From an uncultured Chlamydiae bacterium (GTDB lineage: Bacteria; Chlamydiota; Chlamydiia; Chlamydiales; JAJFMA01): a DNA stretch of 64,000 nt. The notes under the pieces are model-generated. The model saw only the letters and a program-made list of their open reading frames with translations. It was not told where the DNA came from and searched no databases. Position numbers and translations under genes: made by a program. Location of the stretch: positions 3,584,001-3,648,000 of the forward strand of contig CAVQMM010000001.1 in NCBI GenBank assembly GCA_963713615.1, written 5' to 3'. Of the stretch, positions 544-42,291 are shown in pieces (positions within the stretch are counted from its first letter, which is position 1; each line of letters opens with the position of its first letter).

Positions 544-703
544 GGCCTTATTCACCTTTGCGGTCAGTTTTCGGTCGACTGCAAAAGGATCGTCTGTCGC
601 GTTTTGCTCCTCGGACATAGCTGGCGCTATGCCCTCGTCACAAACCACGACATCCGACCTTTTTCGTCCGACCGAAATTCTGACCGTAAAGGTGAACAAG
701 GCC
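544..703. mobile_element. MITE family A, 160 bp, with 8-bp target-site duplication
   Basis: Imperfect TIRs GGCCTTATTCACCTTTGCGGTCAG...CTGACCGTAAAGGTGAACAAGGCC; CAAAGTCG duplicated at 536-543 and 704-711; apparently identical copy at 42132-42291. Confidence 0.95.
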
Positions 704-852
704 CAAAGTCGTTACCAAAATGCTTGTTCGGCTTTAGGCTTTTTTATAACATATGCTCGTTACAGCTCAAAATAAACTGTAACGAGTATATGTTATATGG
801 CTTGTATTTACGGCTTTATTAACCTATTGCAAGAGGCAGGAGGACTTGGATT

Positions 853-1737
853 TTGCGCATAGAAACTTTTAAGATCATGTGGATCTATCTTATCCTTATA
901 TCCGGCAATCCTGAATTATCATCTTCTGAGAATCGCGCCAATCTTCTCGATGTCTATTTGCCCCCTATCGAACTTAAGGAGTCCTCCTCATCGATCTTTC
1001 CCATCGACTGCATCTATGTGATCAATTTGGATGCCAGGTTCGAACGGTGGCAGAGAACCGAGGCTCTATGCGCGCGGTATTCTTTAACTCCAAACCGCGT
1101 CGGTGCGGTGAATGGCTGGGCCATACCCCAGGAAGAACAGGAACGATTGGCCCTCCCTTATCCCTGCCGATTGGGAGGTGGTCAACTGGGTTGTTTGCTT
1201 AGTCATTTATCGATTTTAAAAGATGCCTGGCAGCGGAACTTTGATCTCATTTGGGTTTTAGAAGATGATGTGGAATTTATCGAAGATCCCCGGCAGTTGC
1301 CAGAACTATTAGCACAGCTTTCGCAATCGGATCCTGATTGGGACATCTTATATACGGATACCGATTTTAGGAATAAGCGGCGGGGTTATACCAGACCCCT
1401 GGATAATGACTTTCCGCCCGATTGGAAAAATGAACCACCTTTTATTTGTACTGAGCGAATTCCTATCAGTAAAGATCTGATGCGCATCAGAAGTCGGTAT
1501 GGAACCCATTCGATGCTGATCTCTAGAAGGGGTATAAAAAAAATCCGTGAATATTATGCTTCGCGTCCCCACTGGACAGCTATCGATATAGAGCTACATT
1601 ACATCCCGACGATTCGGGAATACTCCACCCGCCGCGATATTGTTTCCAATCTGCGTCATTCTCTGTCTGATACGCAGAGTAACACTATTTGGCCTTGTTC
1701 ACCTTTGCGGTCAGTTTTCGGTCGACTGCAAAGGTGA
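853..1737 (+). CDS. glycosyltransferase family 25 (LPS/LOS type); start may be ATG at 877
   Basis: YVINLDARFERW, GQLGCLLSHLSILKDA and VLEDDVEF motifs; the last 15 aa come from a mini-MITE. Confidence 0.85.
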   Translation: MRIETFKIMWIYLILISGNPELSSSENRANLLDVYLPPIELKESSSSIFPIDCIYVINLDARFERWQRTEALCARYSLTPNRVGAVNGWAIPQEEQERLALPYPCRLGGGQLGCLLSHLSILKDAWQRNFDLIWVLEDDVEFIEDPRQLPELLAQLSQSDPDWDILYTDTDFRNKRRGYTRPLDNDFPPDWKNEPPFICTERIPISKDLMRIRSRYGTHSMLISRRGIKKIREYYASRPHWTAIDIELHYIPTIREYSTRRDIVSNLRHSLSDTQSNTIWPCSPLRSVFGRLQR

Positions 1738-1745
1738 ACAAGGCT
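1691..1745. mobile_element. mini-MITE of family A, 55 bp, internally deleted
   Basis: GGCCTTGTTCACCTTTGC...GCAAAGGTGAACAAGGCT, flanked by cACTATTT / tACTATTT (7 of 8 bases duplicated). Confidence 0.85.
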
Positions 1746-1747
1746 TA

Positions 1748-3130
1748 CTATTTCGATGACTCGATTTGTTCGATAAGCCCTAGGTCGTAGAGGTCCTTTG
1801 GCTCTGCTCTGCGCTCTTTCATCTGCTTTAGCACCTGCAGAGAGCAAAATTTCACGCCTCGATAGTAAAAATAGTTATCCGGATCAAACAAGATGTCGTC
1901 CAAAGATAGGGCATGATGGGGTAGTTCGCTATTGTGGCTTTCGATGCCATCGATCCCGCAGCTGAAATCCATCGGGGCATAATGTAAAATATCTAAGTCA
2001 TGGCATTCCCGTAGTCCGTAAGCGGCTAGGACAGCCCCGCTGTCAATACAGAACCAATCTGAGTCTTTTTGGGATTCTGTCAGCCAAGCTCTGTAGGTTT
2101 CGAAGTAGCATTCGAATTGGGGGAAAATCGTTTCCTTTCTATGGTTCAGGCAATGCACGCTATTTTGGTTAAAAAGGGCGCGGGCCAGCACGATAGCCTC
2201 GAAATGGGTATCCGTGGAATGTAGGCAATCATTGCCTATCTTAAAAATGGCGCGAATTTTGGTTTTACAGGCTTGTATCAAAGCCAACCCGTCGGCTTCT
2301 AGGAGATAGACGCGTACTGGATTGGAAGCGGTCAAGTTTTCGGGAAAGCAGGCTTTGGCCTTGTTGCGCGCGCTACGATAGCTGTTTTGCCGTCCTTCTT
2401 GCACGAAAGGTTCATGCTCATATGCCGTCAGAATTAATTGGAATCCTCCCTGAACAGTGAAGGGGATTTCCTTTTTGTAAACGATATGCGCGTAGTTTTT
2501 GATGATCCTTTCGACCTTTTTGGCGTGACCGACCGCAGAGGGAAAGATTGTCAGGATGTATGAATTAGGCTTGAGCTCGCAATACTGCAAAGCCATGGCA
2601 TCGAGATATTTGGAATCGAGTCCGCGCTCTTGGAAGTACCTGAAATCATACGCATCGCAAGCTTCAGGTAGATCTTGAACGGTTAGTTTTTTATTGTACA
2701 GCACGCAGGAGGTCACGCGGTGCGCGCCATTGCAGATCACTCCATTAGATCCACGTGGAACGGCATGCGACGCATTAAATCCATTCAGCTTAATATCATC
2801 CAGTAAACAGTCAAAAGCATTGAAATATGCTTCAAAACCATTTTTAGGTGGTTCGTATTCCCAAAATTGATTCCATACCTCCAGGTGGTGGTAATAGAGA
2901 TCGCGCCCAAAGGGGCAACGGGTTTTCCATTCCCTATGTTTCGCGTAGATATATTTGGCCATGAGATCGGCCCGTAAAGGAGAAACTACATCCAGAGCTG
3001 AAATTTCGGTATAGTTGTTAATCCGTTTTAGATGCCCATGGGCATCGTTCAAAGAGAGGCAAAGCAACATAGTGATTAAAACAACTGTCAGGGTCATGGA
3101 TCGGACTTGTATCAGTGGGGCTGGATTCAT
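1748..3130 (-). CDS. hypothetical protein: signal-peptide-like N-terminus, ParB/Srx-like segment, C-terminal nucleotidyltransferase-like domain
   Basis: NGAHRVTSC (ParB-like GxHR); IDSGAVLAAYGLRECHDLDIL (NTase-like G[S/A]...DxD); C-terminal KDLYD. Confidence 0.6.
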   Translation of the reverse strand: MNPAPLIQVRSMTLTVVLITMLLCLSLNDAHGHLKRINNYTEISALDVVSPLRADLMAKYIYAKHREWKTRCPFGRDLYYHHLEVWNQFWEYEPPKNGFEAYFNAFDCLLDDIKLNGFNASHAVPRGSNGVICNGAHRVTSCVLYNKKLTVQDLPEACDAYDFRYFQERGLDSKYLDAMALQYCELKPNSYILTIFPSAVGHAKKVERIIKNYAHIVYKKEIPFTVQGGFQLILTAYEHEPFVQEGRQNSYRSARNKAKACFPENLTASNPVRVYLLEADGLALIQACKTKIRAIFKIGNDCLHSTDTHFEAIVLARALFNQNSVHCLNHRKETIFPQFECYFETYRAWLTESQKDSDWFCIDSGAVLAAYGLRECHDLDILHYAPMDFSCGIDGIESHNSELPHHALSLDDILFDPDNYFYYRGVKFCSLQVLKQMKERRAEPKDLYDLGLIEQIESSK

Positions 3131-3164
3131 GTTTTTTACCTTGAAATGTCGTATTGGAGGAAAA

Positions 3165-3196
3165 GGCCTTGTTCATCTTTGCGGTCAGATTCGGTC
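3165..3196. repeat. isolated end of family A MITE
   Basis: GGCCTTGTTCATCTTTGCGGTCAGATTCGGTC matches the family A TIR. Confidence 0.7.
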
Positions 3197-3471
3197 AGTC
3201 TCTCAGGACACCCCCTATTGCCCAATATGTGCCTCTTCGAAGATGGGGATGGAGATGAACTGCTATCCCTAATTTATCATTGAAAAACGACTTTTATCCA
3301 ATCTTTAAGGCACTATTGTAATCTTAGAGTCTCAAAGCACCATATTGGTGTAGTCAACAGTAAAATGTTGGCTATCCGGAAGTGGAGATATGAGGATGGG
3401 TTCTTCCATTTTTTGGAAGAATCCCCTCCCCCTATGGGGGTTTATAGAACGAGTTTTGTTTAGGAGATCAC

Positions 3472-4857
3472 ATGCAAGCATTTCTACGCGATGACCTATG
3501 GTCAAAACGCTGTCTGCATCAGGCAGAGGCACTTGCAGAGGCGGGAGAATCGTTATTTAAGGTAGAGGCACGCATCACCTTTCTCGCTGCAGCATTAGTA
3601 TCGACGGCTCAGGCTGCCACCTTTGTGGGAATTTCCGCTATTGCCTTTGTGGCACACGTGTTCTTTTCGGTTGTTAATGCATTGGTGGATTTTGATCTGG
3701 CGCATACCGTGACGGAGTATTTTTATGACTCATTCAGTAAACTCAGAGGCTCTATTCTGGATGCTATCGTCGCCATGCTTAGTGCTACGACGCACACAGG
3801 CATTTCTAAAGGCATGGAAGCCTGGTTGGGAGGCCGTGTGAACCTCGATTGGAGCGATTTTAAAAATGAGGAGATTCGCAAGTTTGCTAAGCGCGTGGAT
3901 ACCGCTCGCCAGAAACATCTAGGAGCCGTTTCACCTGAAGAACAATGTAGAATTGGAAAGACCATCAAGCGGGTGGATGCTCTAGGTAAGACATATTCTT
4001 CAGACTTATACTTCGACGCGATGACAAATGATATTAAGGCCAAGGTTCAAGGGCTTATCGTGGAAGCGGATCGCAGAATCAACAGTCCGACAGCTACTGA
4101 CGTCCAGAAATACGAAATTCAGCAAGATGCCATGCAGCGCATCAGCACCTTCACCCGCAAAAAGATCAATAAACTGAATGGACTTCCCATGAGCTATCTA
4201 GAAGTGGCTGATTACCGCATGCAGAAAGCTGAAAAGCTTCAAGAACGTGCTACGAAGTTCTTTCATAAACAGGCCAATGTGGCTGCGGAGCTTGAACACC
4301 GTAGCAATCCGCAAAAATTTGACGTAGAAGCATATCATCAACGTCGAGAGGGCGTTATTAAGAGTATTCAACAGGGCTTTCATGGCAATCTAGTTGGTCT
4401 TCGCAGAAAATATCACTCTTTTAGGGACTCCTGGAGGACTAAGGTTGCAGACGTCAAAACGCAAGAATCGGAATTGAAAAGTCAATATCATAGCTACCAA
4501 CGCTGGCTTTCCCTAGGAGGCTTGTTCTTAAGCCAGGAAACGCGTGATCAATATGAAGCAGCGGTAGCTGAGCTAAAACCAAAGATTCAGCAAATGGAAA
4601 CCGCGCGTTTTCAGGCTATTCGCAGCATTAGAAGCGGAGCCTTCAGATCTTTTGAAGGGAAACAACTGAGCTGTGATGGCTACTTTAACAAGCAGGTTGC
4701 TGCCGGTGGGAATATCCTCGGCCAGGTAAACAAACTTGTCGCCCCTAGCCTTTCGCGGCGTCTATTTCGGGGGATTGTCAAACCCATCGCTAGCTTAGGT
4801 GGCCAAGCGCTTGTTCAGGGCTTGGAGAGTGTGCTCGACCCCGACGTCAAGCGGTAG
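3472..4857 (+). CDS. hypothetical protein, Inc-like/effector candidate (paralog of 9405-10487)
   Basis: ~45-aa N-terminal hydrophobic stretch followed by a charged helical region; shares DLYFD-M, QKFD and a C-terminal DP motif with ORF 9405. Confidence 0.7.
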   Translation: MQAFLRDDLWSKRCLHQAEALAEAGESLFKVEARITFLAAALVSTAQAATFVGISAIAFVAHVFFSVVNALVDFDLAHTVTEYFYDSFSKLRGSILDAIVAMLSATTHTGISKGMEAWLGGRVNLDWSDFKNEEIRKFAKRVDTARQKHLGAVSPEEQCRIGKTIKRVDALGKTYSSDLYFDAMTNDIKAKVQGLIVEADRRINSPTATDVQKYEIQQDAMQRISTFTRKKINKLNGLPMSYLEVADYRMQKAEKLQERATKFFHKQANVAAELEHRSNPQKFDVEAYHQRREGVIKSIQQGFHGNLVGLRRKYHSFRDSWRTKVADVKTQESELKSQYHSYQRWLSLGGLFLSQETRDQYEAAVAELKPKIQQMETARFQAIRSIRSGAFRSFEGKQLSCDGYFNKQVAAGGNILGQVNKLVAPSLSRRLFRGIVKPIASLGGQALVQGLESVLDPDVKR

Positions 4858-5189
4858 AGGGGGAGGGAATAGGAATTTTTACCACAGAGGACACAGAGAC
4901 GCCGAGATAGGAAGAGAGAGGATGAGGAGAGAGGATGAGGAGAGAGGGTTAGGAGAGAAAAAATGTCCAATCAGTCCAGTCAGTCCATTTCGTCCAATCA
5001 GTCCATTTTAGCATAGGTGAAAATGGACTTTATGGACTTTATGGACAATATGGACCGACTGGACTGATTGGACATTTTTTCTCTCCTAACCCTCTTTCCT
5101 CTTCCTAATCCTCTCTCTCCTATCTCGGCGTCTCTGTGTCCTCTGTGGTAAAAATTCCCCTCCCTCCCCTCCTTCTCTCCCTTCCTCTC
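4858..5189. repeat. palindromic repeat family B with nested family C core
   Basis: Arms TTTTTACCACAGAGGACACAGAGACGCCGAGATAGG / CCTATCTCGGCGTCTCTGTGTCCTCTGTGGTAAAAA; inner ~9-bp GTCCA / TGGAC arrays around CCATTTT-AGCATAGGTG-AAAATGG. Confidence 0.9.
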
Positions 5190-6224
5190 TCACTCGAAGA
5201 GTCGGGTCACCTTGGGCCTCACAAAGACCTGGTCGGACTTTTTGAGCTGGAGCGATTCGACGGCATCTTTAGAGATTTCAGCCTGTAAGATAGAGCCATT
5301 GGTGCGTTCGAGTTCAAGCTTAACCAACGGGCCAGCTGGGTTGATGTGCACGACAATGGCTCTGATCGATTGGTGATGGTCGGACCTGCGGGAGATGATC
5401 ATCTCATGCGGGCGGGCGAACAGCTTAACAGTAGGATGTGAGGTATCGCCTGGCTCAGAGAAATGCAGCTCCCCTTGGTCATCTTTCCAGCCATCCAGGA
5501 CGTTGTAGTTGCCTAAAAAGTCGTAGACGAAGCTGCTGGCTGGCGTGTGGTAGACTTGCTCTGGCGTGCCAATCTGTTCGATGTGGCCACTGTTCAGTAC
5601 AGCGACTCTGTCGGCTACTTCCATGGCCTCTTCTTGGTCGTGGGTGACGAAGATGTTGGTGATATGAATCTCATCGTGAAGACGGCGTATCCATCGTCGA
5701 AGCTCTCGGCGCACTTTGGCATCCAGCGCCCCAAAGGGCTCATCAAGCAGTAGGACTGTAGGTTCAACAGCTAGTGCTCGAGCGAGAGCGACACGTTGGC
5801 GCTGTCCTCCGGATAACTGGGCTGGATACCGATGTGCAAAGCCATCCAGGTGTAGCAGGGTGAGCAGCTCGTTAACTCTAGCATGAATTTTATCCGTCGA
5901 AGGCCTGCTGTGCTTCGGTCGAATGGTGAGGCCAAAGGCGATATTCTCCAGAACGGTCATATGCTTAAAGAGGGCATAATGCTGAAAAACAAAGCCGACA
6001 CGGCGGTCTCGGATGTTTTTATAGTGGCTGGGCTCACCGTCGATATACACCTCACCAGAATCTGGATAATCTAATCCTGCGATGATTCTCAGCAAGGTCG
6101 TTTTGCCAGAGCCTGATGGGCCTAGAAGGGCAAGCAGCTCACCGGTCATGATCTCTAGATTGATATCTTGGAGAACAACGACGTTGCCAAATTTCTTGCG
6201 GATGTTTTTAAGTACTATGCCCAC
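5190..6224 (-). CDS. cysA: sulfate/thiosulfate ABC transporter ATP-binding protein
   Basis: [36 protein letters not shown]-terminal TOBE-like region; operon context. Confidence 0.95.
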
Positions 6225-6231
6225 AGGACAC

Positions 6232-7080: not shown

Positions 7081-7086
7081 AGGCTC

Positions 7087-8930: not shown

Positions 8931-8994
8931 TAAGGTCTCTCCTGTGTAGCGTTAGCAGCTCATATAACCTTTTTTGGCGCAAAGACGCAATGGC

Positions 8995-9288
8995 TACGGT
9001 TCGTTTAGCTTTTTAGGAGTAAACACGGATGCACACGGATCTAGGAGGATTTAGGAGGATAGGATGGAAAACTAGTTCATTATTCAAAAACGATAAAAAT
9101 GGTTTTAGGATGGAATGCATCCATTCCATCTTAAAAATCAATTTTATTGTTTTAGGTTGACGAACCGTATTTGCCATCCTATCCTCCTAAATCCTCCTAG
9201 ATCCGTGTGCATCCGTGTTTACTCCTAAAAAGCAAAACGAACCGTATTTGCACATCCTAGATCCGTGCATCCATGTTACTCCTAAAAA
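8995..9288. repeat. palindromic repeat family D (CACGGATGCACACGGAT), copy 1
   Basis: Inverted arms ACGGTTCGTTTAGCTTTTTAGGAGTAAACACGGATGCACACGGATCTAGGAGGATTTAGGAGGA around an AT-rich palindromic core; four copies in the window. Confidence 0.95.
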
Positions 9289-9333
9289 TGGCACAGACCA
9301 CCATCAAGAACGTTTTTTAAATACAGGGAGAGT

Positions 9334-9387
9334 TTGACTAATTAAGTTATAACGCGTTATAATGCTACCCCTTCCGGTATATACCGG
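9334..9387 (+). promoter_or_regulatory. sigma66/sigma70-like promoter with overlapping palindromes
   Basis: TTGACT-N18-TATAAT (9334-9363); perfect palindromes TTATAACGCGTTATAA (9347-9362) and CCGGTATATACCGG (9374-9387). Confidence 0.55.
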
Positions 9388-10658: not shown

Positions 10659-12827
10659 ATGGATGGAACACAATCTGCTACCGCTACCCCGGGCCCCGTA
10701 TCTCATGGTTTTTTGGAGGGAATCACTCTCCGTGTTGGGCACACTGCAACGACCACTAAGATTCTTATTGTGCGAGTGTACGAGCTGGCTATGGCGACGA
10801 TACTCTACGTAACTGCGACGGTGACCTTTCATCAGATTCAGTCCTTGGATACCTGGAGGCAGGACTATTGGTGGGAAGCTAATAACTACGGTAATTTAAG
10901 CGCCCATATGTGGGGGATTATCAGTCCTACTACCGCTGAAGAAATGCTCTTTGGCAAGACTGACGAGGTTAACGCTAACGACGAAGCTAAGAAAAAAGAG
11001 CAGGCTGAAAAGGCTAAGGCTGACGAAGAGGCAAAGACTAAGGCAGCAGAAGCTGAAAAAGCGGAAGCCGCGCGTAAGGCCGCTGAGGAAGCCAAGAAAT
11101 CCGCTGAACCCTCGGGGCCTGGTTGGGTAGAGTGGCTTTGGAGTGGAGCCGTTGACGTCAGTGAAAAAGAAAAACAAAAAGAGACGCTTCTTAAGGGCCT
11201 CCAAAATGTCGACAAAGACCTGACTAAGGCTATTGGCGTTTTTTGTCAAACTGGAGGGGTTGACAACATAGATCCCCAGGCTTTTACTGCTTTTACTGCT
11301 CAAGCAAAAAAGAAAAAGGAAGCCATGATAGAGAATGCCAAAGCGGAGTTTGAGCGTAAGTCTGGTAAGGGATGTGACGAAATCGCGCAAGCACAGCGTA
11401 GCGCTTTTGTAAAATCAATGGATGGGGAAATCAATCAATTCCTTAAAATCGTGCAGCGACAGATTTTGGCCAACTTCTTTGACCTGTGGTATGAGCAGCA
11501 TAAAGGGCTGAATATTGTACTCCAAGAGGGATTAAACAACTTACAACAAGTAGAGCTTAATCAGCCTAACCTCAAGTCAGAATTTCTACAGTGGTGGTTA
11601 AAACAGGGAGCTAGTTCGTTTATTGCCAATGAAGGAAGCTATCAGGATCGCATTAGCGCGGTAAAGAATTTTCATAACCAGTGGCAAAGAAATCTAGAAT
11701 TCGACTATTATAGGCAGCGATCTTTTAGAACTGAAATGGATTTTTTGAGAGGCCAGGCTAAAAAACTGGTGGCGGAGGGTAGGCCAGCTATTTGGGACCG
11801 TTTGCACCAAGCAGACGAGGCATTTCGTCAGACGTTACAGAATCCCGCGCATAAGAAGGACCCGAATTACAACAGCTTATACGACGGTTTTGACGAGCAA
11901 GTTGGTAAGATTTTGGATGCTGACGATGCCAAAAGTCAAGCGGCTTTAGCGGCCGTTCAAACCTTAACCCCAAAGGAGACCACTCCAACTGGTTGGTTTG
12001 AGCAAAAGAGGGATTGGTTGGCTAAGGGTGATGGCAGAGTAGCGGAGGTAACTAAACGCCTTGGAGGCGATTCATGGGTAGTTAAAGGCCTTGCTGGCGG
12101 TGTAGATAAGACATGGGGTGTGCTTTCGTACGTGATGCCTGAGGTCGACTCCATAGGATATTTTTTCACACGTGGGATAGGTAACATCGGGGGTGCCCTC
12201 AGAGGCATTGGTAAATGGACCCTATTCGGGATGTTTGCGATTCCTGCCGGGCATATATTAGCTTATTATTTAGAAGAGCATCCCTATATCCCCTTCATTG
12301 GGGAGTTTAAAATTCCAGTTCTTTCGAAAAATCCTATATGGAAAATTTACAGTAACATGGTGCCGAGTTACACAGATCCAAAGGGAATAGCTTCCCTAGC
12401 TAGTTACATAGCAGTTGCAGCTCATGTGCCTTTTGCAAGAGATTATACTATCACTGCTTATTCAGCGAATTATGTGTGCAGGCAGCTGGGATTAGGAGAG
12501 CCTTTGCCTTGGCCTACAACAGGTATTGGGTATGCATGGGATGCATTTGCCTGGGCTTGGAATGCATACAATTCGTTGCCTGTTTGGGCAGAGGAGTTAG
12601 GTAAGTGGATTGGTGCTGGCTTGTTCCTGTGTTATATTGGCCAAAAAACTGTTAAGTCAGTTGTAAACAGTGTAAATACTGTAACAAGACCTATCGTAGG
12701 AGTCGCTAACGCCGTGACCGACACCGGTAAGGTGATGGTTAGCGCGGGCAGAACCGTTGTGGACGCGGGTAAGGGTATTTATGGGGCTGGCAAATGGCTC
12801 TACAACAAACTCCCCGCACGGGCGTAG
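10659..12827 (+). CDS. large hypothetical membrane protein (Inc-like N-terminus, Ala/Glu/Lys coiled coil, Gly/Trp-rich hydrophobic C-terminal third)
   Basis: RBS AAGGAG; 722-aa ORF; N-terminus aligns without gaps to ORF 9405. Confidence 0.75.
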   Translation: MDGTQSATATPGPVSHGFLEGITLRVGHTATTTKILIVRVYELAMATILYVTATVTFHQIQSLDTWRQDYWWEANNYGNLSAHMWGIISPTTAEEMLFGKTDEVNANDEAKKKEQAEKAKADEEAKTKAAEAEKAEAARKAAEEAKKSAEPSGPGWVEWLWSGAVDVSEKEKQKETLLKGLQNVDKDLTKAIGVFCQTGGVDNIDPQAFTAFTAQAKKKKEAMIENAKAEFERKSGKGCDEIAQAQRSAFVKSMDGEINQFLKIVQRQILANFFDLWYEQHKGLNIVLQEGLNNLQQVELNQPNLKSEFLQWWLKQGASSFIANEGSYQDRISAVKNFHNQWQRNLEFDYYRQRSFRTEMDFLRGQAKKLVAEGRPAIWDRLHQADEAFRQTLQNPAHKKDPNYNSLYDGFDEQVGKILDADDAKSQAALAAVQTLTPKETTPTGWFEQKRDWLAKGDGRVAEVTKRLGGDSWVVKGLAGGVDKTWGVLSYVMPEVDSIGYFFTRGIGNIGGALRGIGKWTLFGMFAIPAGHILAYYLEEHPYIPFIGEFKIPVLSKNPIWKIYSNMVPSYTDPKGIASLASYIAVAAHVPFARDYTITAYSANYVCRQLGLGEPLPWPTTGIGYAWDAFAWAWNAYNSLPVWAEELGKWIGAGLFLCYIGQKTVKSVVNSVNTVTRPIVGVANAVTDTGKVMVSAGRTVVDAGKGIYGAGKWLYNKLPARA

Positions 12828-12926: not shown

Positions 12927-13182
12927 TGGCAGTCCTTCAGACTGCCCAATACGTTTTGGCGTATTTCCAGGGCGATGCCCTGGCCTGTTGCAATATCAGC
13001 CTTTCAGGCTTAGAAATGGTGACAGCTCATTTGGGCAGAAATTATTTATCCAACGCGCAATCGAAAACCTAATGTGTCACATGCCTGTGCCATTTCTAAG
13101 CCCGAAGGGCAGACATTGCAACAGGCCATGGCATCGCCATGGTATATGCAATAACACGATACCGCAGTCTGAAAGACTGCCA
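12927..13182. repeat. REP-like family F doublet (stand-alone, no H insertion)
   Basis: Inverted arms with hairpins GCAGTCCTTCAGACTGC, CCATGGCATCGCCATGG and GCCCGAAGGGC; intact TGGCATCGCCA site at 13129-13139. Confidence 0.85.
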
Positions 13183-13209
13183 TAGGGCGCATTGTATAGC
13201 ATAGCGTTG

Positions 13210-13304
13210 AATGGACATGATGGACTTTATGGACACTATGGACGAGGGGTTAAACTTCTGTCCATGATGTCCACTAGGTCCATTATCGTCCACTCTGTCC
13301 ATTC
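13210..13304. repeat. family C palindrome of ~9-bp TGGAC / GTCCA tandem units
   Basis: ATGGACATGATGGACTTTATGGACACTATGGAC ... GTCCATGATGTCCACTAGGTCCATTATCGTCCACTCTGTCCAT. Confidence 0.75.
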
Positions 13305-20407: not shown

Positions 20408-20685
20408 TTGTGAAGAATTGGGGGTGCTTTGGAGTCACAATCGTCACTCGGCGCGAAGCGCTTTGGAGTGCGGTCGCTCGCGACCGCTTTGGATTTGGGT
20501 GAACTAGGTACCGTACGAATCTTTACTTTCCTCTTTAAGGGTGTCTAGAAGGCTTGACGGTATGACGGGAAACTGTGTGACACAGCACATTCGCCCAAAT
20601 CCAAAGCGGTCGCGAGCGACCGCACTCCAAAGCGCTTCGCGCCGAGTGACGATTGTGATTCCAAAGCGCCCCCTATTCTTCACAA
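20408..20685. repeat. REPIN-like family E palindrome (stand-alone)
   Basis: Near-perfect ~90-bp inverted arms containing TTGGAGTGCGGTCGCTCGCGACCGCTTT, around a unique spacer. Confidence 0.92.
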
Positions 20686-20688
20686 GAA

Positions 20689-20720
20689 CCCAAATTCCAA
20701 ATTTATGACCGAGTGTGGTA
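20689..20720. repeat. single arm of family I element
   Basis: CCAAATTCCAAATTTATGACCGAGTGTGGTA is the reverse complement of the left end of 54003-54167. Confidence 0.8.
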
Positions 20721-20840
20721 GCATAATAGACATTTTGTGAGATGTTGTCTAGCAGCTCTAGTTTGTGTAAAAATTAAATCATTGATACAATAATACTGAG
20801 TGGAATGTTTTGTTGAAGAGTTATTTTTGTTAGGTAAGCA

Positions 20841-21290
20841 ATGACTACCATTGATAAATTGGACATAAGTGTATATATTTCGTACGCCATGCGCACTGAG
20901 TATGTCGAGGCGATCAAGAAGGAATTCCGTCTTGATCAAGCTGAGTCCATTCCTACTCAGACGACTCTTGTTGACTTTCAGGTTAAGCCATCAGAGATAG
21001 ATCTTCTTCTTGGGGTAGCAGCAGTCACTACACCGTGGGCTATTTTCTTGCCGCCCAAACGTTTCATGGGACGTCGGCGCTCACCGTTTACGGTGGCACG
21101 TGTCACACCCTCTTTGGGTAGTCAGCATGATCAGGATGAGAAGGAGCAGGAGATTGAGGATATGGAGTGTGAAACGGCGGAAGAAGAGCGTGAAAAAAGC
21201 GTCTTGCTGTCCTGTTTTCAACAAATTACGAAGATAAATGATTGGTTGAGTCACATTATTAGTCGTATTGGTCAGTTCTTGCAGGCTTAG
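20841..21290 (+). CDS. conserved chlamydial protein (CT273/DUF5399-like)
   Basis: Divergent from rsmH and upstream of a TPR gene, as in Chlamydia; PWAIFLPP and C-terminal ISRIGQFLQ. Confidence 0.7.
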   Translation: MTTIDKLDISVYISYAMRTEYVEAIKKEFRLDQAESIPTQTTLVDFQVKPSEIDLLLGVAAVTTPWAIFLPPKRFMGRRRSPFTVARVTPSLGSQHDQDEKEQEIEDMECETAEEEREKSVLLSCFQQITKINDWLSHIISRIGQFLQA

Positions 21291-21306
21291 GAGAATTTCG
21301 AGGCAT

Positions 21307-21750
21307 ATGGAAAAGATTGTTCCCACTGAGGCTCCCGCCGAGGCAAAGAAGCGTATGGGCAAAATCAATTGGCTGGAGAAGCTAGGCTGGTCCGAAGAGC
21401 AATTAGAGGATTTACGCATCACGGGCTATTCGTATATCCGGCAGGGAAAGTATCACATTGCCGTGCCCTTCTTCGAAGCTTTGGTTGTATTGGTGCCTTC
21501 GAGTGCTTATGATGCTCAGACACTTGGCGCACTATATGTACAGGTTGGCAACCCGGCAAAGGCCTTGCGCTACCTGGATCGCGCCTTAAAACTGGAACCC
21601 GACCATGGCCCTACACTGTTGAATCTTGCCAAAGCCTTCCTGATGCTTGGCAACAAAAGGGAAGGTCTCAAAATCGCTGGTATTCTCAAGAAAAACCGCG
21701 ATCCCCGCCTACGCAGCATGTCTGAAGCACTGCTTCTTGCGTTCGGTTAA
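21307..21750 (+). CDS. TPR protein, putative type III secretion chaperone (CT274-like)
   Basis: LGWSEEQLEDLRITGYSYIRQGKY, YDAQTLGALY and TPR repeats; ATG at 21307. Confidence 0.85.
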   Translation: MEKIVPTEAPAEAKKRMGKINWLEKLGWSEEQLEDLRITGYSYIRQGKYHIAVPFFEALVVLVPSSAYDAQTLGALYVQVGNPAKALRYLDRALKLEPDHGPTLLNLAKAFLMLGNKREGLKIAGILKKNRDPRLRSMSEALLLAFG

Positions 21751-21796
21751 TGGATACAATGGGCTTATTGGACGAACTGGACTGACTGGACGTATT

Positions 21797-22547
21797 GAGG
21801 TAATTGCAAAATTATTTGAGCTCTCATGGATCGATTCTTTGGAAAAAAAATCACTTTTTTTTGTGAGAAGGCGATTCTAGAGAGCTTAAGTGGTATGGCA
21901 CTATCCAGTCTGGAAAGACAGGCTTTTCTCCCTTCCCAGGCCCGAAGGGTCGATATTGCAACAGGCCATGGCATCGCCATGGTATATGCCAGGAAGGGAT
22001 TTCGCAGTCTGAAGGACTGCTACAAGACGCCAGTTTACAAACACCATTTATGCATGCGCTTTATGGCAGCCCTACAGGCTGCTAAAACCGTTTTGGCATA
22101 TACCATGGCGATGCCACATAGGCCTCAACCTAACAGGTCTTTTGAGCTTATATCTCAATGACTTAGGACTTCACAATCGTATCTCGGCGCGCAGCGCTTT
22201 GGAGTGCGGTCGCTTGCGACCGCTTTTCGTTCCTTGGGACGGCAATGCTAAAGGCATTGTATGGATTCGTCGAAGGCTGCATGTACTAACTATTTTACCC
22301 TTAGGGAATTATAGTGATGCCGTTGCACACGACCGTCGCAAGGAACCCAAAGCGGTCGCAAGCGACCGCACTCCAAAGCGCTGCGCGCCGAGATACGATT
22401 GTTAGGCTTAGGTTGAGGCCTATGTGGCGATGCCATGGCCTGTTGCAATATCGACCCTTCGGGCCTGGGAAGGGAATGACTCTCTCTTCACCGGCATCCG
22501 ATTTTCAGGAAATTGACTTCGGAGAATCGGACTTCTGCAATTACCTC
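21797..22547. mobile_element. nested composite element copy 1: G > F > H > E
   Basis: Outer TIR GAGGTAATTGCA / TGCAATTACCTC; F palindrome ~21929-22475; H 22117-22424; E 22173-22402. Confidence 0.92.
22117..22424. mobile_element. MITE family H, 308 bp, with 11-bp TSD
   Basis: TIR CATAGGCCTCAACCTAA / TTAGGTTGAGGCCTATG; TGGCGATGCCA duplicated at 22106-22116 and 22425-22435. Confidence 0.95.
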
Positions 22548-22660
22548 ATAAAACATAAAGACCTCAAGCGAAAATAGCCTTGCATTAAAATAAACAGTTG
22601 GCCTATCGAGGGAGCTTACGTCCTAAATGTGCTCTAAACCCTATTTTGTTGGAGAATATC

Positions 22661-27793: not shown

Positions 27794-28147
27794 GATGGCA
27801 AATGTGACGGTTTGTTTGGCTTTTAGGAGTAACACGGATGCACACGAATCTAGGAGGACTAGGAAAGGAAATACCGTTCCTCAATCTGAAACAATAAAAT
27901 TGGTTTTTAAGATAGCATGAACACAATCTATGTTGCTTCTAAAAGGCTGAACGAACCGTGTTTGCCATCCGATCCTCCTAAATCCTCCTAGATCCGTGTG
28001 CATCCGTGTTACTCCTAAAAAGCTGAACGAACCGTCACATTTGCCATCCGATCCTCCTAAATCCTCCTAGATCCGTGTGCATCCGTGTTACTCCTAAAAA
28101 GCTGAACGAACCGTCACATTTGCCATCCTACTCCTTCTAAATTCTCA
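27791..28147. repeat. family D copy 2 (right arm tandemly duplicated, 79-bp unit)
   Basis: TTGCCATCC recurs at 27962, 28041 and 28120; lies between convergent genes. Confidence 0.95.
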
Positions 28148-35458: not shown

Positions 35459-35523
35459 TACCTTGATGTTTATTGGCGGTAAGGGTATACGATTATCACT
35501 TTTTCGTGAGGAGGGCATATCGG

Positions 35524-36894: not shown

Positions 36895-36914
36895 CCGAAC
36901 CAAGGGATGAGACT

Positions 36915-38741
36915 ATGTGCGGCATTTTTGGTTATGTGGGAGGGCAAGAAGCCGTTGGAATAACTCTGGCGGGTCTCAAAAGGCTAGAATACCGCGGCTA
37001 CGACTCAGCTGGCATAGCGGGTTTTAACAATGGCGATCTGGTTCATTGTAAAGTTGTGGGAAAGATCGCTGCTCTAGAGCAGGAGGTCAAAAAGCAGGGG
37101 CTTAAGCTGTCTACCGCTATTGCCCAAACGCGTTGGGCAACGCATGGCAAACCTAATGAAGTCAATGCGCATCCGCATTTCGATCACTCTGGCTCCCTAG
37201 CCTTGGTACACAATGGGATCATCGAAAATCACGATAGTTTACGCAAGATGCTGGAAGCAAAAGGCTGCGTGTTTAAATCTGACACCGATACTGAAGTAGC
37301 AGCCCAACTTATCGGCCACCTCTATCAGGGTGATCTTCTCAGCGCCGTTCAGCAAGCCCTTCCTCTCCTTCATGGTGCTTATGCCCTTGTGATGATTCAT
37401 AAGAATCACCCAAAGCAGATTTTAGCCGTTGCTTCGGAAGCTCCCCTGTCCGTGGGGATAAGTCCCAGTGAGGCCTATGTTTCTTCTGATGTGATGGCTC
37501 TCAAGTCCATGGCTAAAGAGGTTTTTCACCTCGCAAATAGTGAAATAGCTGTTATTCATGCAGATCAGGTAGAAACCTTTGATGCCTCGAAGTCTAAGAT
37601 TATCAAAAATCGTGAGGCCCTGACGCAAACGGCTGAGGAAATCTCTAAAGGGGATTTCGCGCACTTTACTCTCAAAGAGATTTTTGAACAGCCAAAGTCA
37701 TTGCAGGCCGCTATTGCTTCTCGCTATTCAGAGGAGTATGGTACAGCCATTCTTGACGGTCTAAACATGGGCGTCCATGAACTCCTTAGCGTTGAACGTA
37801 TCCTCATCCTAGCCTGCGGGACATCATGGCATGCTGGCGTGATTGGTGCCTATATGCTCGAAGACTTGGCCCGAATTCCAGTGCAGACAGAAATATCGTC
37901 CGAATATCGCTATAAGAATCCCATCGTATTACCAGGCACTTATGTGATCGCCATGAGCCAGTCCGGAGAGACGGCTGACACCATCGCTGCAGTCCGTGAG
38001 TTGAAGGCCAAAGGAGCTAAGATCCTAGCTGTTTGTAACGTGCAGGGGTCAACGCTGACTCGAGAAGCAGATGGATGCCTCTACCTGCGTGCAGGGCCTG
38101 AAATAGGTGTTTGTTCGACGAAGGCTTTTACCAGCCAGGTAGCCGTGCTCTTCCTGTTTACATTGCTAATGGCACGTATTCGTCATGTGGGCAAGGCAGA
38201 GGGGCAAGCTCTGATTAAGGCTTTACAGCTGCTTCCCGATCAAGTTCAGCAGGTTCTTGAGGAAGCCAACCATATCGAAGAAATAGCCAAAAAATACGCT
38301 AAGTACGACAACTTCTTCTTCCTGGGCCGTCGACATATGTACCCTGCAGCTCTTGAAGGTGCTTTGAAGCTCAAGGAAATCTCCTATATCAATGCCAATG
38401 GCTACCCAGCCGGTGAAATGAAGCATGGTCCTATCGCTCTGATCAATGAACAATGCCCCACAGTAGCATTGTGTGCTAATAAGGCGACCTACACCAAGCT
38501 TCTCAGTAACCTCATGGAGGTTAAAGCCCGCAGTGGCCCCGTTCTGGCTATCGTGCCACAGGGGGCTGAAGGTCTGGATAGTATCGCTGATGATACAATT
38601 TGGGTGCCAGATACCATCGATGAGCTTGCTACGGTACCGACCTCTGTGGCTCTGCAGCTCTTTGCCTATTTCGTTGCCAGGGAACGCGGCTGCGATATCG
38701 ACCAACCGCGTAACCTCGCTAAGTCCGTCACCGTCGAATAG
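36915..38741 (+). CDS. glmS: glutamine--fructose-6-phosphate aminotransferase
   Basis: MCGIFGY, LEYRGYDSAG, SQSGETADT, DQPRNLAKSVTVE. Confidence 0.99.
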   Translation: MCGIFGYVGGQEAVGITLAGLKRLEYRGYDSAGIAGFNNGDLVHCKVVGKIAALEQEVKKQGLKLSTAIAQTRWATHGKPNEVNAHPHFDHSGSLALVHNGIIENHDSLRKMLEAKGCVFKSDTDTEVAAQLIGHLYQGDLLSAVQQALPLLHGAYALVMIHKNHPKQILAVASEAPLSVGISPSEAYVSSDVMALKSMAKEVFHLANSEIAVIHADQVETFDASKSKIIKNREALTQTAEEISKGDFAHFTLKEIFEQPKSLQAAIASRYSEEYGTAILDGLNMGVHELLSVERILILACGTSWHAGVIGAYMLEDLARIPVQTEISSEYRYKNPIVLPGTYVIAMSQSGETADTIAAVRELKAKGAKILAVCNVQGSTLTREADGCLYLRAGPEIGVCSTKAFTSQVAVLFLFTLLMARIRHVGKAEGQALIKALQLLPDQVQQVLEEANHIEEIAKKYAKYDNFFFLGRRHMYPAALEGALKLKEISYINANGYPAGEMKHGPIALINEQCPTVALCANKATYTKLLSNLMEVKARSGPVLAIVPQGAEGLDSIADDTIWVPDTIDELATVPTSVALQLFAYFVARERGCDIDQPRNLAKSVTVE

Positions 38742-39110
38742 GATTTAGGATGGCAGATACGGTTCGTTTAGCTTTTTAGGAGCAACACGGATGCACACGG
38801 ATCTAGGAGGATTTAGGAGGATTGGATGGCAAAACACGGTTCGTTTAGCTTTTTAGGAGTAACACGGATGCACACGGATCTAGGAGGATTTAGGAGGATT
38901 GGATGGCAAATACCGTTCATCAATCTGAACCAATAAAATTGGTTTTTAAGATCGCATGAACACAACCCATGTTGCTTCTAAAAGGTTGAACGAACCGTAT
39001 CTGCCATCCAATCCTCCTAAATCCTCCTAGATCCGTGTGCATCCGTGTTACTCCTAAAAAGCTAAACGAACCGTGTTTTGCCATCCTTTGCCATCCTATC
39101 CTTCCCTAAA
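38742..39110. repeat. family D copy 3 (left arm tandemly duplicated)
   Basis: GGATGGC recurs at 38748, 38824 and 38901; inverted right arm. Confidence 0.95.
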
Positions 39111-39151
39111 CTGGTTTCTATTTTTTTCTCCTCCATGCTATGCTGTTTTGC

Positions 39152-40348
39152 ATGGCTGACCATCGCGGAACAATTTTTAGCGGAACTTTATTGGTTGCAG
39201 GGACGACTATCGGCGGCGGGATGCTCGCTTTGCCAGTGTCGACTGCAGCAGCGGGTTTTGTGCCGTCGCTAGTAGTCTATGTTTTGTGCTGGGCTTTTAT
39301 GGCTTGCACAGGACTGCTCCTAGCAGAGGCTTGCCTGTGGTGTAAGGATGATGCTAACGTCGTGTCCATCGCAGGTCATACTTTGGGGCGTGTGGGTAAG
39401 GCATTTGCTTGGATCTGGTACCTGTTCTTGTTCTACTGCTTAACTTTGGCATATGTCGTTGGAAGCGGTAATTTTGCCAAAGAACTTGCCGGAGAGGCCC
39501 TTTCTCAGCGCACTTCCACGTTAGCTTTCGTCTTGCTCTTTGGAATTCTTGTCTATGCAGGTCCTAAAATCGTTTCTCGTGTCAACCTTTGGCTGATGCT
39601 GGGTTTAGCCCTGGCTTATGTGGGTTTTGTCATTCTGGGTACTCCTAACATCGATGTGGCTTTACTGGAGCGAAGAGATTGGTCTCAGACTTTTAATGCC
39701 CTTCCTATTGCTTTTGTCGCTTTCGCCTATCAAGGGCTTGTACCCACTCTCAGTCGCTATATGGCCTACGATCTTAAGCGCATTCGCGCATCCATTCTAT
39801 TGGGTACTTTTGCGACACTTGTTTGCTATATCATTTGGCAGGCGTTGATTCTAGGTATTGTTCCGTTGAATGGCCCTGGGGGGCTTGCCGAAGCAAAAAT
39901 GGCTGGTCAAAGCGCTGTACCGCCTCTCAAGCAGTTTTTGCAAAATCCCTATGTCTATGACTTGGGTCAGTTCTTTGCCTTTTTTGCCCTGACAACTTCT
40001 TTTTTGGGGGTTTCCTTGGGCTTAGTGGATTTTCTGGCCGATGGACTAGGGGTCAAGAAGACCCCTGTCGGAAAGTTGCTGTTGTGCTTAATGGTTTTTA
40101 TTCCTCCGCTGATTCTTGCGGAGCTTTATCCTACCGTATTTTTGTCAGCCCTGGATTTAGCAGGTGGGTTCGGTGTAGCGCTCCTGCTGGGGCTCTTGCC
40201 CATCCTTATTGTTTGGGCAGGTCGCTACTTTCATCATCTAACCGGACCTCACCTGCTACCTGGTGGCCTTTGGATTCTTCTTCTCCTTTTGCTTTTCGTC
40301 GTCATCGAAGTGACAATCGAAGTTAGCCATCTTTTCGTCAGGCTATAA
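39152..40348 (+). CDS. tyrP: aromatic amino acid (tyrosine) transporter, HAAAP family
   Basis: GTLLVAGTTIGGGMLALP, FFALTTSFLGVSLGLVDFLADG; follows glmS as in Chlamydia. Confidence 0.88.
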   Translation: MADHRGTIFSGTLLVAGTTIGGGMLALPVSTAAAGFVPSLVVYVLCWAFMACTGLLLAEACLWCKDDANVVSIAGHTLGRVGKAFAWIWYLFLFYCLTLAYVVGSGNFAKELAGEALSQRTSTLAFVLLFGILVYAGPKIVSRVNLWLMLGLALAYVGFVILGTPNIDVALLERRDWSQTFNALPIAFVAFAYQGLVPTLSRYMAYDLKRIRASILLGTFATLVCYIIWQALILGIVPLNGPGGLAEAKMAGQSAVPPLKQFLQNPYVYDLGQFFAFFALTTSFLGVSLGLVDFLADGLGVKKTPVGKLLLCLMVFIPPLILAELYPTVFLSALDLAGGFGVALLLGLLPILIVWAGRYFHHLTGPHLLPGGLWILLLLLLFVVIEVTIEVSHLFVRL

Positions 40349-40349
40349 T

Positions 40350-40784
40350 TTAGCGATCTTCCCATGGCACCGGAGGATGATCTGACGTTTCAGCTGGGAA
40401 ATAGTGCTGACTATGATTTGGCGTCATCATCATCAGGCTGTGTCTTGGCAAACGCCAGTAGCTATAGCCAGGAGTTCGGAAGGTTTGGGGAAACCATAGG
40501 TCTCCATATCGATAGGGATTGCCAAAGCCTAATCTATAGTAGGGATATCCTCCGTAAAAATAATAACCATGTCCCCATCCCCACGAGCCATTTGCTGCGT
40601 ACAGCAAGTGAAATCCAGGGGAACCTACTCCGCGTATGGCTGCTAATAATGACGTAGTTGCCCGGTTGGGCTCAGTGTTCGCAAAGGTGTTTCCTTTTGC
40701 AGGGCCTTCGCGTAGTGATTCCAGACTCCAGCACAATAGGAGTGTGGCAATAACAGACGATAATATAAATATGTGTAATTTCAT
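40350..40784 (-). CDS. secreted Tyr/Gly-rich small protein
   Basis: Signal-peptide-like N-terminus; GHGYYFYGGYPYY. Confidence 0.6.
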   Translation of the reverse strand: MKLHIFILSSVIATLLLCWSLESLREGPAKGNTFANTEPNRATTSLLAAIRGVGSPGFHLLYAANGSWGWGHGYYFYGGYPYYRLGFGNPYRYGDLWFPQTFRTPGYSYWRLPRHSLMMMTPNHSQHYFPAETSDHPPVPWEDR

Positions 40785-40891
40785 ATTTTGAGTCTCGTGT
40801 TTAATTAACAGTTACGGGTCACTGCATCTTTTATTATAGAAATCGATTATTATCGTGTAAATATAATTTTTTATTAACTACTTTAAATAGA

Positions 40892-40920
40892 AAAGCCTTG
40901 TGAATAATTCACAAGGCTTT
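40892..40920 (-). terminator. intrinsic terminator after ORF 40939-41316
   Basis: AAAGCCTTGTGAA-TAA-TTCACAAGGCTTT, followed by a T-rich tail on the minus strand. Confidence 0.7.
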
Positions 40921-40938
40921 GGATATTATAATGAGATT

Positions 40939-41316
40939 TTAGTGACGATGACCTCCGTGACCCATTCCTCCTCCGCGGCCTCCATGCCAATCCCCTCCTC
41001 TCCCTCCATAACCTTCGTTGTAGGACCCATAATATGGATAATCACCATAGATATAGTTCCCCCCTGTGTAATAGTCATACTGTTGATATGGATCGAAATA
41101 GTAGTCTGAGTCATTGTCGTCGTAATTATAACTATTATAGTTTCTGTCGTAGTTGTAATCATTGTCGTAGTCTCTATATCCATCACCATGGTCAAAATGA
41201 ATAACGATTGCTACCAATTTTGGGGAACTGACAGTTGTCGCTTGAAGATGAGTATTTGGTGTACTAATGAATAGCATGATAGCGGCAATAGGTACAAACA
41301 ACCATGTCGAGTACAT
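40939..41316 (-). CDS. secreted Tyr/Asp/Gly-rich small protein
   Basis: GGAGG RBS; signal peptide; 21 of 125 residues Tyr; RGG/His tail; has its own terminator. Confidence 0.8.
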   Translation of the reverse strand: MYSTWLFVPIAAIMLFISTPNTHLQATTVSSPKLVAIVIHFDHGDGYRDYDNDYNYDRNYNSYNYDDNDSDYYFDPYQQYDYYTGGNYIYGDYPYYGSYNEGYGGRGGDWHGGRGGGMGHGGHRH

Positions 41317-41444
41317 ATATCCTCCTGTGTCAAAATAAAGTATCGAGCTATAACAAAACAGAAATTAGCGAATTAATTTAATATTAAACTCGCCTATACA
41401 GCTATTATATTTGTCGTGGAATGTAATGTCAAATTTGTAATACT

Positions 41445-41482
41445 AAGTGGTCTCGCTGGATGAAACTCCAGAGAGACCACTT
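41445..41482 (-). terminator. hairpin downstream of ORF 41669-42031
   Basis: AAGTGGTCTCGCTGGA...TCCAGAGAGACCACTT. Confidence 0.55.
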
Positions 41483-41502
41483 CAGAAGTCGTGAAAAAAA
41501 CT

Positions 41503-41662
41503 GGCCTTGTTCGGCTTTCCGGGCAGAATTTCGGTCAGGCGAGAGGTCCCAGATGCAGCAGTCGACGACGAGGGAATAGCGCTAGCTATTGCCGAGGAGG
41601 CGAATGCTGCAGATGGGCGCCTCGCAGCCGACCGAAAACTGCGCGAAAAGTCGAACAAGGCC
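41503..41662. mobile_element. MITE family A, diverged subfamily A2, 160 bp, with 8-bp TSD
   Basis: GGCCTTGTTC...GAACAAGGCC; AAAAAACT duplicated at 41495-41502 and 41663-41670. Confidence 0.92.
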
Positions 41663-41668
41663 AAAAAA

Positions 41669-42031
41669 CTACCACGGGTAAGAGTAGTAATAGTCTTGTT
41701 CTTGGTAGGGGGTGTAGTAGTGAGGTTGAGTAGGAGTATAAAGATAGGTGGGTTCATCTAAGTAGTGATCTTCATAGGGGTAATAGGGATAGTAATTCGG
41801 ATAATCCTGATAGTAAGGATAGTGGTAGTGATGATAATGGTAGGGACGATACCAGTGATGATGCCCGCCCATTCTAATATGCCCACCCATCCTAATATGC
41901 CCGCCATGCCCGCGGGCAATTAAAGAGGTCCGAGGTGCAGATGGTGTAGGAGTGCTGTTACTGTAGAGACAGATACTGGGAAAAATTAATGCGATCGCGA
42001 GAATAGGGATGAAGAATAGTTTCGAGTACAT
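41669..42031 (-). CDS. secreted Tyr/His/Pro-rich small protein
   Basis: Signal peptide similar to ORF 41316 (MYS...); GGHIRM x2; 25 of 120 residues Tyr. Confidence 0.8.
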   Translation of the reverse strand: MYSKLFFIPILAIALIFPSICLYSNSTPTPSAPRTSLIARGHGGHIRMGGHIRMGGHHHWYRPYHYHHYHYPYYQDYPNYYPYYPYEDHYLDEPTYLYTPTQPHYYTPYQEQDYYYSYPW

Positions 42032-42131
42032 ATAACCCCCTTTGTGGGGACATTACGAGTAGGAGGAGAAAATATATTATTCCCTCTGTATTATATTATA
42101 TTAGTTAAATATTTTAATGAATAGATTAACG

Positions 42132-42291
42132 GGCCTTATTCACCTTTGCGGTCAGTTTTCGGTCGACTGCAAAAGGATCGTCTGTCGCGTTTTGCTCCTC
42201 GGACATAGCTGGCGCTATGCCCTCGTCACAAACCACGACATCCGACCTTTTTCGTCCGACCGAAATTCTGACCGTAAAGGTGAACAAGGCC
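42132..42291. mobile_element. MITE family A, 160 bp, with 8-bp TSD
   Basis: Same sequence as 544-703; GATTAACG duplicated at 42124-42131 and 42292-42299. Confidence 0.95.

Follow-up and report, generated by a model that had tools for sequence, protein, structure and literature searches.

RPE-1 and other Rickettsia palindromic elements (RPEs) were reportedly described by Ogata in 2000 and 2002. In the passages of PMC10969869 and PMC3733652 that deal with them, RPEs are palindromic repeats of ~150 bp with an ORF, placed in frame in unrelated metabolic genes of an intracellular bacterium, and no RPE transposase is named in these passages, making RPE movement and the retention of open frames hard to test. 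The same passages present the bacterial MITEs Correia/NEMIS, RUP and ERIC as hairpin-forming sequences of 70-300 bp that are mostly intergenic. The chlamydial repeat analyzed here can be likened to RPEs, by behaviour and as they are described there, in being palindromic, carrying an ORF and lying in frame within unrelated genes, and to Correia/NEMIS, RUP and ERIC in its size, hairpin formation, terminal inverted repeats, target duplication, lack of a transposase and mostly intergenic position. Unlike RPEs as presented in those passages, it belongs to another phylum, has sharply defined inverted ends with target duplications of 8 bp, shares its genome with a candidate transposase gene whose element has matching ends, and has undergone a very recent burst. 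Unlike the listed MITEs as described there, its net length is 3n, its two mirror frames are open, and its old copies lie in frame in usually essential genes. The behaviour of an in-frame repeat is thus already known from Rickettsia; a search for environmental chlamydiae with in-frame MITEs found nothing in print.

The window, i.e. the whole stretch of 64,000 nucleotides that was analyzed, carries the following features of the family:

536..543 and 704..711: left and right copies of the 8-bp target duplication of the element at 544
544..703, + strand: MITE of subfamily A1, intergenic, after cmk; the commonest sequence, with 79 identical copies genome-wide
545..703, + strand: '+1' ALF frame, 53 codons, Ser/Ala-rich
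544..702, - strand: '-1' ALF frame, 53 codons, Ala/Asp/Glu-rich
616..631, + strand: central hairpin, 6-bp stem and 4-nt loop
1691..1745, + strand: internally deleted mini copy, 55 bp, target duplication matching at 7/8 positions
3165..3196, + strand: solo left-end fragment of the MITE family
41503..41662, - strand: MITE of subfamily A2, intergenic, 160 bp, 45 differences from A1; perfect 8-bp duplication at 41495..41502 and 41663..41670
42132..42291, + strand: MITE of subfamily A1, downstream of ftsY, identical in sequence to 544..703; its own perfect 8-bp duplication at 42124..42131 and 42292..42299

A preliminary description of this DNA had read the three full copies as 160 bp each, all intergenic and flanked by differing perfect 8-bp repeats, and had put the net addition at 160 + 8 = 168 bp, or 56 codons, all of which we confirmed. 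Because the addition equals 56 codons, a copy landing where its frame has no stop would lengthen the host protein rather than break it. For the mini copy, described as 55 + 8 bp or 21 codons, the length of 55 bp was confirmed and the duplication matches at 7/8 positions; mini lengths have no frame bias, with 5 of 11 giving a multiple of 3 (P = 0.29). The mini copy covers the final codons of a glycosyltransferase-25 ORF (853..1737) in a non-ALF frame. The central hairpin recurs in a second repeat family with different ends.

The source genome (G000) contains 129 full copies, of which 122 are 160 bp long, 79 are identical and 110 have a perfect 8-bp target site duplication. Among 125 end-paired copies, an exact duplication of 8 bp was found at 107, no other length between 2 and 14 reached more than 5, and the 124 distinct left-flank 8-mers indicate many independent target sites. 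Short, bounded by terminal inverted repeats and lacking a transposase, the repeat is a MITE. The burst is young: A1 copies differ from the commonest copy by a mean of 0.6 bases, compared with 15 differences pairwise among the copies of a related genome, G002. Exceptions to a 3n length are several single copies of 159, 161, 162 and 167 bp, plus the minis. Identical copies with other flanks are present in four public runs, in which no joint skipping the element was found and the insertion sequence discussed below is thinly covered; a public RNA run yielded a 36-base end only.

An insertion sequence (IS) of 1,883 bp at C1:1035800-1037682 of the same genome has a perfect 8-bp duplication of its own and ends matching the MITE. 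The left end of A1 equals that of the IS over 16 bases, including an A at position 7 that is specific to the left side, and at the right end 21 of the first 22 bases are shared, as compared by eye on an end listing. The ends of A2 fit a second IS variant (C1:1074398 and 1064974), ~70% identical to the first, both copies of which are damaged; the only full-length IS ORF lies in the IS matching A1, the larger and younger subfamily. The IS1595 family, ISPna2 group, has ends starting with GGC and an 8-bp duplication, a fit that had led the preliminary description to link the MITE to this group. That link is already largely refuted and an IS1595-type driver is scarcely credible, considering that no IS1595 transposase (PF12762) was detected in the 99% complete genome, that the only long elements with MITE-type ends encode a DUF6399 protein, and that this protein is unrelated to IS1595/ISPna2 transposases and longer than they are. 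The partner of the MITE is most likely the DUF6399 IS, as a candidate. Searches of five other MITE-carrying genomes (G002, G264, G261, G275 and G315), all fragmented assemblies of 88-94% completeness, gave no DUF6399 match.

The IS protein is some 560 aa long; its sole domain match is a C-terminal DUF6399 region, and it has more than 1,500 homologs. None of the NCBIfam transposase models matched it, nor did the Pfam/NCBIfam models for the IS256, ISLre2, ISKra4, ISL3 and ISNCY groups, and searches with its sequence against solved structures gave nothing significant. Its Atlas neighbours bear ISL3/Mutator domains. The predicted structure has an RNase H core (pLDDT 86) with a helical insert, for which the best Foldseek matches were Hermes and ISCth4; VIA-align of the model with ISCth4 gave Z 12.9 and an rmsd of 3.8 over 258 aligned residues. 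D166, D221, H243 and E473 are invariant in 71/71 close homologs, and 19 residues after D221 there is a D240-x-x-H243 motif, in which the first position is D in 69/71 distant and 24/71 close members, otherwise E. GG-anchored inverted ends were found at 63 of 75 homologous loci, eight partial GTDB loci having been excluded beforehand and three of the 63 (L038, L048 and L055) probably being due to chance. Perfect repeats of 7-9 bp flank 20 of the 60 loci with flanks (12 of them 8 bp long and 7 of them 9 bp) and are absent from the other 40. The predicted fold is therefore Mutator-like DDE, and the protein resembles p-MULT transposases in the DDE triad with a long helical insert, as seen on the model, in the (D/E)xxH spacing, C/D(2)H lying 11-19 aa beyond the second Asp in p-MULT proteins, in the 8-9-bp repeats and in its short inverted ends. 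It differs from the p-MULT families in matching none of their Pfam/NCBIfam models, in its length and C-terminal DUF6399 region, and in the family ends, which are GGCCTTG(A/T)TC-like. A literature search on DUF6399 found nothing in print. A domain still filed under 'unknown function' gains a concrete candidate function as a transposase.

Taken with the shared ends, these features suggest that the repeat is a MITE adding 56 codons and probably mobilised by a 1.9-kb IS through its DUF6399 transposase, a reading to which we assign a probability of about 0.75. The DUF6399 protein would then be an active Mutator-like DDE transposase binding the MITE ends. As one genome holds both a candidate transposase that looks intact and 79 copies of identical sequence, mobilisation is open to laboratory assay. 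For chlamydial annotation, the family is a source of 56-residue insertions and of false ORFs.

In both A1 and A2 the ALF...NKA frame is stop-free on either strand, as had been claimed, and each subfamily has one further open frame that the first reading overlooked, bringing the total to 3 of 6. Within G000, read-through occurs at 5 of the 14 copies located in genes, which is at chance (P = 0.42 against 0.5), and only 1 of 14 does so in an ALF frame; no in-frame enrichment was found among these 14, from which copies at 3671870 and 126984 had been excluded because they probably do not lie downstream of the true start. A control peptide from the +0 frame occurred in named protein families of G000 only (2/8 hits). 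Other chlamydiae gave a different picture, with in-frame copies found within conserved genes, namely deoC, tilS, cheR, lnt, ligA, murC, lpxB and tatC, so that the family contributes ~56-residue peptides to intact genes of relatives. The proposal that the element adds peptide segments without disruption thus holds for the relatives, and not as an in-frame landing bias within G000. All five interior in-gene copies found by DNA in G002 and G264 are in ALF frames (5/5 versus 1/14 in G000; Fisher P = 0.0005), a small tally, partly called by eye, in which the tilS case was deduced from two contigs that both break off at the element. Left out of this count were L012 of G002 (a probable shadow ORF); L021 of G002 and rnpA, rmlD and msrA of G264, probably located at the true start or upstream of it; the C-terminal edge copies L016, L020, L027 and L174; and ligA and L153, as found by peptide. 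The sequence at L139 and L140 is apparently error-prone.

Most in-gene relatives are read in the '-1' ALF frame, lnt of G264 in the '+1' frame. The insert-bearing lnt and tilS are the sole lnt and tilS found in their genomes, no insert is present in the deoC orthologs of G001 and G003, comparison with solved homologs puts the inserts of MurC and LpxB at domain junctions, and TatC and others also carry the peptide internally; a single-sequence AlphaFold model of MurC with its insert reached pLDDT 33 and was set aside. The in-frame relatives appear older than the G000 burst and, by analogy, behave like Rickettsia palindromic elements. Landing would be blind to frame, with disruptive copies then removed by host selection, so that old survivors within needed genes would sit in ALF frames, and the inserts would be translated into peptides that linkers, loops and termini can tolerate. 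Comparing young and old copies makes landing separable from survival.

The fold of the element is very stable (z-scores of -9.8 and -12.3), and across 19 copies 34 of 60 pairs show two-sided changes, a value reached by none of 500 shuffles. These observations, together with the position of 100 of 114 copies outside genes in the source genome, would fit an element retained for its RNA hairpin, as an RNase III substrate or for mRNA stability or termination, with arm changes reflecting RNA-structure selection. We consider this unlikely, since in 6 haplotypes of young A1 copies tracts of several bases have been copied over from the other arm, and the mirror base is regained in 7 of 46 substitutions (P = 0.02); stem changes therefore need not imply RNA selection. 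Moreover, A-C mismatches are, on a rough count, about as common as G-U, copies between convergent gene pairs are not clearly favoured (25/128 versus 393/2176), and an Rfam search of the window returned tRNA alone and no match to the MITE. The matched changes may instead largely represent one arm copied onto the other. The A2 stem changes that had been listed (CATAGC/GCTATG to AATAGC/GCTATT; CACCTTT/AAAGGTG to CGGCTTT/AAAGTCG) are present in the sequence, the CGGCTTT/AAAGTCG stem including one G.U pair.

A broader proposal, which we advance tentatively and regard as more doubtful than likely, is that a phylum-wide chlamydial MITE persists in frame within needed genes between invasions of unclassified Mutator-like IS elements, and that this selects for a 3n length and stop-free frames on two strands, not for the peptide, with ends re-tuned to each transposase (A1, A2). 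In-gene copies would then be protected templates preserving length and open frames between invasions, which is the least certain step. If true, an RPE-type system would be available together with its motor, and its fresh burst could be compared with old survivors. It is quite possible, if short of even odds, that the family is instead an ordinary DUF6399 MITE that inherited its 3n length and open frames by accident, the in-frame copies being leftovers of selection with no effect on the evolution of the element. The chance-level in-frame rate of the young burst points this way, as do the lack of a codon-position signal, the scarcity of codons one transition from stop in ALF frames (0-3, versus 5-11 in others) and the open mirror frame pair found in 6-18% of trials with a mirror-shuffled element. 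On the other hand, of 9 lineages that are 11-75 bases apart, 8 retain 160 bp and both ALF frames, whereas the non-ALF frames stay open in no more than 3; simulation gives an expectation of 1.6-2.9 retained lineages out of 8, compared with 7 observed; two diverged copies were altered by +3 bases; and arm copying readily makes 159-162-bp variants, yet the many-copy subfamilies of G000, G002 and G264 are all 160 bp. Stop avoidance in the ALF frames is only suggestive, as it weakens when lineages detected through the peptide are left out (P 0.02-0.08). A star-tree product of 3.5e-6 was rejected because it treats lineages as independent, and was set aside for the simulation.

A domesticated functional module of 56 residues, with selection acting on its amino-acid sequence, would be in line with 20 of 53 columns being invariant among 9 peptide copies and with the recurrence of the peptide in many proteins. 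Judged by the sequences, however, the amino-acid sequence of the insert is not conserved: codon-position tests detected no third-position bias (58 of 187 changes) and no synonymous-site excess, making such a module very improbable. The host proteins are unrelated, both strands are used, and old copies drift strongly, with L153 showing 51-75 differences.

The window occupies C1:3584001-3648000 in a 3.97-Mb, 99% complete genome, which carries 129 full MITE copies, 116 of subfamily A1 and 13 of A2, with 122 of them measuring 160 bp. A perfect 8-bp duplication flanks 110 of the 129, 79 are identical to each other, and the target sites are 66% AT. Four public soil or peat runs contain identical copies with different flanks. 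The family in this genome is real and represents a very recent burst. All three window copies show the features ascribed to them in the preliminary description: a length of 160 bp, a perfect 8-bp flanking repeat that differs from copy to copy, and a pair of mirror open frames (the ALF frames, +1 and −1).

Searching the genome for unpaired MITE-type ends revealed a 1,883-bp element at positions 1035800-1037682 of the same contig (C1), which shares its ends with the MITE, is flanked by a perfect 8-bp duplication of its own and is inserted in another transposase gene; a further copy at C1:3024579 is interrupted. A second IS variant, ~70% identical to the first, is found at C1:1074398 and C1:1064974, one copy being internally deleted and the other having a shortened frame. 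In the end listing, the ends of A1 correspond to those of the first IS, down to an A at position 7 found at the left end only, and the ends of A2 correspond to those of the second variant. The earlier proposal of an IS1595 (ISPna2-type) partner was wrong; no IS1595 transposase was found in this 99% complete genome. Other transposase genes serve as landing sites for the IS and for many MITE copies, giving nested elements.

Nested IS/MITE insertions in transposase genes (C1)
1035800-1038396
384250
2974747
3092123
3158190
1125965

The 559-aa ORF of the IS has DUF6399 as its sole Pfam match and matched none of the NCBIfam transposase models. It has 1,563 homologs; among the 120 listed, names are hypothetical or DUF6399, with one 'transposase'. 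In the AlphaFold model (pLDDT 86), an RNase H core carries a long helical insert; the top Foldseek matches are Hermes and ISCth4, and VIA-align gives Z 13-14 for integrase cores and Z 12.9 for ISCth4 (rmsd 3.8 over 258 residues). All 71 close homologs share residues D166, D221, H243 and E473, and the first three are likewise invariant in 71 distant homologs, which were chosen on the E473 motif. The predicted fold and invariant residues fit the description of Mutator-like transposases in an excerpt from PMC3942029. The homologous loci come from many phyla; 63 of the 75 show GG-anchored inverted ends, mostly delimiting 1.8-2.0 kb, and among the 60 with flanks a perfect 7-9-bp repeat borders 20 and is absent from 40. 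Several of the closest named loci are Chlamydiales bins. We infer that the DUF6399 protein would be active as a transposase. The 160-bp element is a genuine MITE and belongs to an unclassified Mutator-like IS family.

Frame preservation, claimed earlier, holds by the arithmetic of length (168 bp, or 56 codons) and fails for landing in this genome. By the dicodon rule, 14 of the 114 copies with a duplication lie inside coding sequence, compared with 1,099 of 1,500 random positions. Reading continues through 5 of the 14 (four in a third open frame, +0, and one in an ALF frame), half being expected by chance, so landings in frame are no more frequent than chance predicts. The few additional in-gene cases beneath the threshold have mixed outcomes, and the mini copies, one of which was also taken as frame-preserving, add a multiple of 3 in 5 of 11. 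The hosts look dispensable: transposases, hypothetical proteins, a glycosyltransferase-92 with two paralogs, and an RHS/YD-repeat gene (C1:~3692226-3697523) interrupted by one A2 and one A1 copy, both out of frame.

Older relatives differ in this respect. Among 400 genomes of the phylum, the element was found in 7, which span four taxonomic families, and it also turned up at 9 metagenome loci. In the sister species (G002), where the mean difference between copies is 15 bases, all four interior in-gene copies are in ALF frames, in deoC, a CheR-TPR gene, a hypothetical gene and tilS, the last split between two contigs that share the duplication; the deoC orthologs of two other genomes (G001, G003) lack exactly the inserted stretch. 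In another genome (G264), 17 near-full copies were examined, several of them at contig ends: lnt contains one, read in the +1 frame, another is placed at or before the start of rnpA, and no interior disruption was flagged. The insert-bearing lnt and tilS are the sole ones found in their respective genomes. In-frame copies inside conserved genes, as anticipated, are thus found in relatives, and the ALF-frame share of in-gene copies is 1/14 in the window's genome versus 5/5 in G002 and G264 (P = 0.0005; small numbers, partly assigned by eye). Two tandem G264 MITEs 8 bases apart (L171:1333-1660, contig C66) yield an uninterrupted double peptide whichever strand is read. End variants place an ATG in the element's last codons, as in most G264 copies (L156, L162, L173 and others), and at locus L135:502-662 this ATG appears to provide the plsX start.

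At the protein level, a search with the −1 peptide returned 24 longer proteins, with interior inserts in MurC, LpxB and TatC and terminal ones in YbbR, SpeD and RnpA, often bordered by duplicated target residues; judged by solved homologs, those in MurC and LpxB fall where domains join. Searching with a profile produced 124 matches, mostly short ORFs; 10 of the 23 longer ones scanned could be assigned to a Pfam family, among them RecD-like helicases, an outer-membrane efflux protein, OpcA and NuoJ. The +0 peptide as control gave 8 matches, with named families from the window's genome only, there being far fewer candidates and a +0 frame closed in many lineages.

Codon third positions coincide for both ALF frames. 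Because they take 18 of 54 variable sites among three subfamilies and 58 of 187 changes among nine lineages, the amino-acid sequence of the peptide appears not to be selected. Eight of the nine lineages keep both frames open, the remaining frames being open in 0-3 of 9, and stops look under-represented: tree simulations from observed copies gave P 0.003-0.027 for all nine lineages and 0.02-0.08 for the seven found by DNA. The ALF frames are poor in stop-adjacent codons, a feature that could be either cause or effect. We give element-level selection for an open frame slightly less than an even chance.

Two-sided changes affect 34 of 60 hairpin pairs, and Rfam has no match for the hairpin. Among young A1 copies are six haplotypes in which part of one arm has been overwritten with the mirror sequence of the opposite arm, and single changes yield the mirror base more often than expected (7/46, P = 0.02); copying between arms at the DNA level can therefore explain the two-sided changes without a working RNA. 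The central hairpin is also part of a second repeat family whose ends differ (C1:191270, 1795421, 2417889), and G002 and G003 have many matches to positions 64-97 of the MITE, which suggests a common hairpin core fitted with different shells.

The family's behaviour matches that of Rickettsia palindromic elements (RPEs) as described in excerpts of PMC10969869 and PMC3733652, and on an evolutionary time scale the MITE probably acts as an RPE does. The RPE account excerpted from PMC10969869 does not mention chlamydiae, and literature searches on DUF6399 and on in-frame MITEs in environmental chlamydiae returned nothing. The window newly contributes a genome in which two MITE subfamilies are paired with two IS variants; it also brings a candidate enzyme that is intact and a contrast of young copies with old ones.

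Elsewhere in the window, long ORFs of 460-722 aa (1748-3130, 3472-4857, 10659-12827) gave no Pfam or NCBIfam match. There is a gene for DUF5399, a family of chlamydial range; with the Chlamydiales bins among the closest named IS loci, it makes an environmental chlamydia the probable source. The intergenic spaces are crowded by several further families of palindromic repeats.

Other palindromic repeat families (window positions)
8977-9248
12927-13243
20408-22550
27795-28118
38739-39086
46654-46996
51557-52178
61700-62454

A low-complexity His/Tyr/Asp-rich short ORF (41669-42031, minus strand) adjoins a MITE copy, as does a similar one in G002 (L012:3807-4080).
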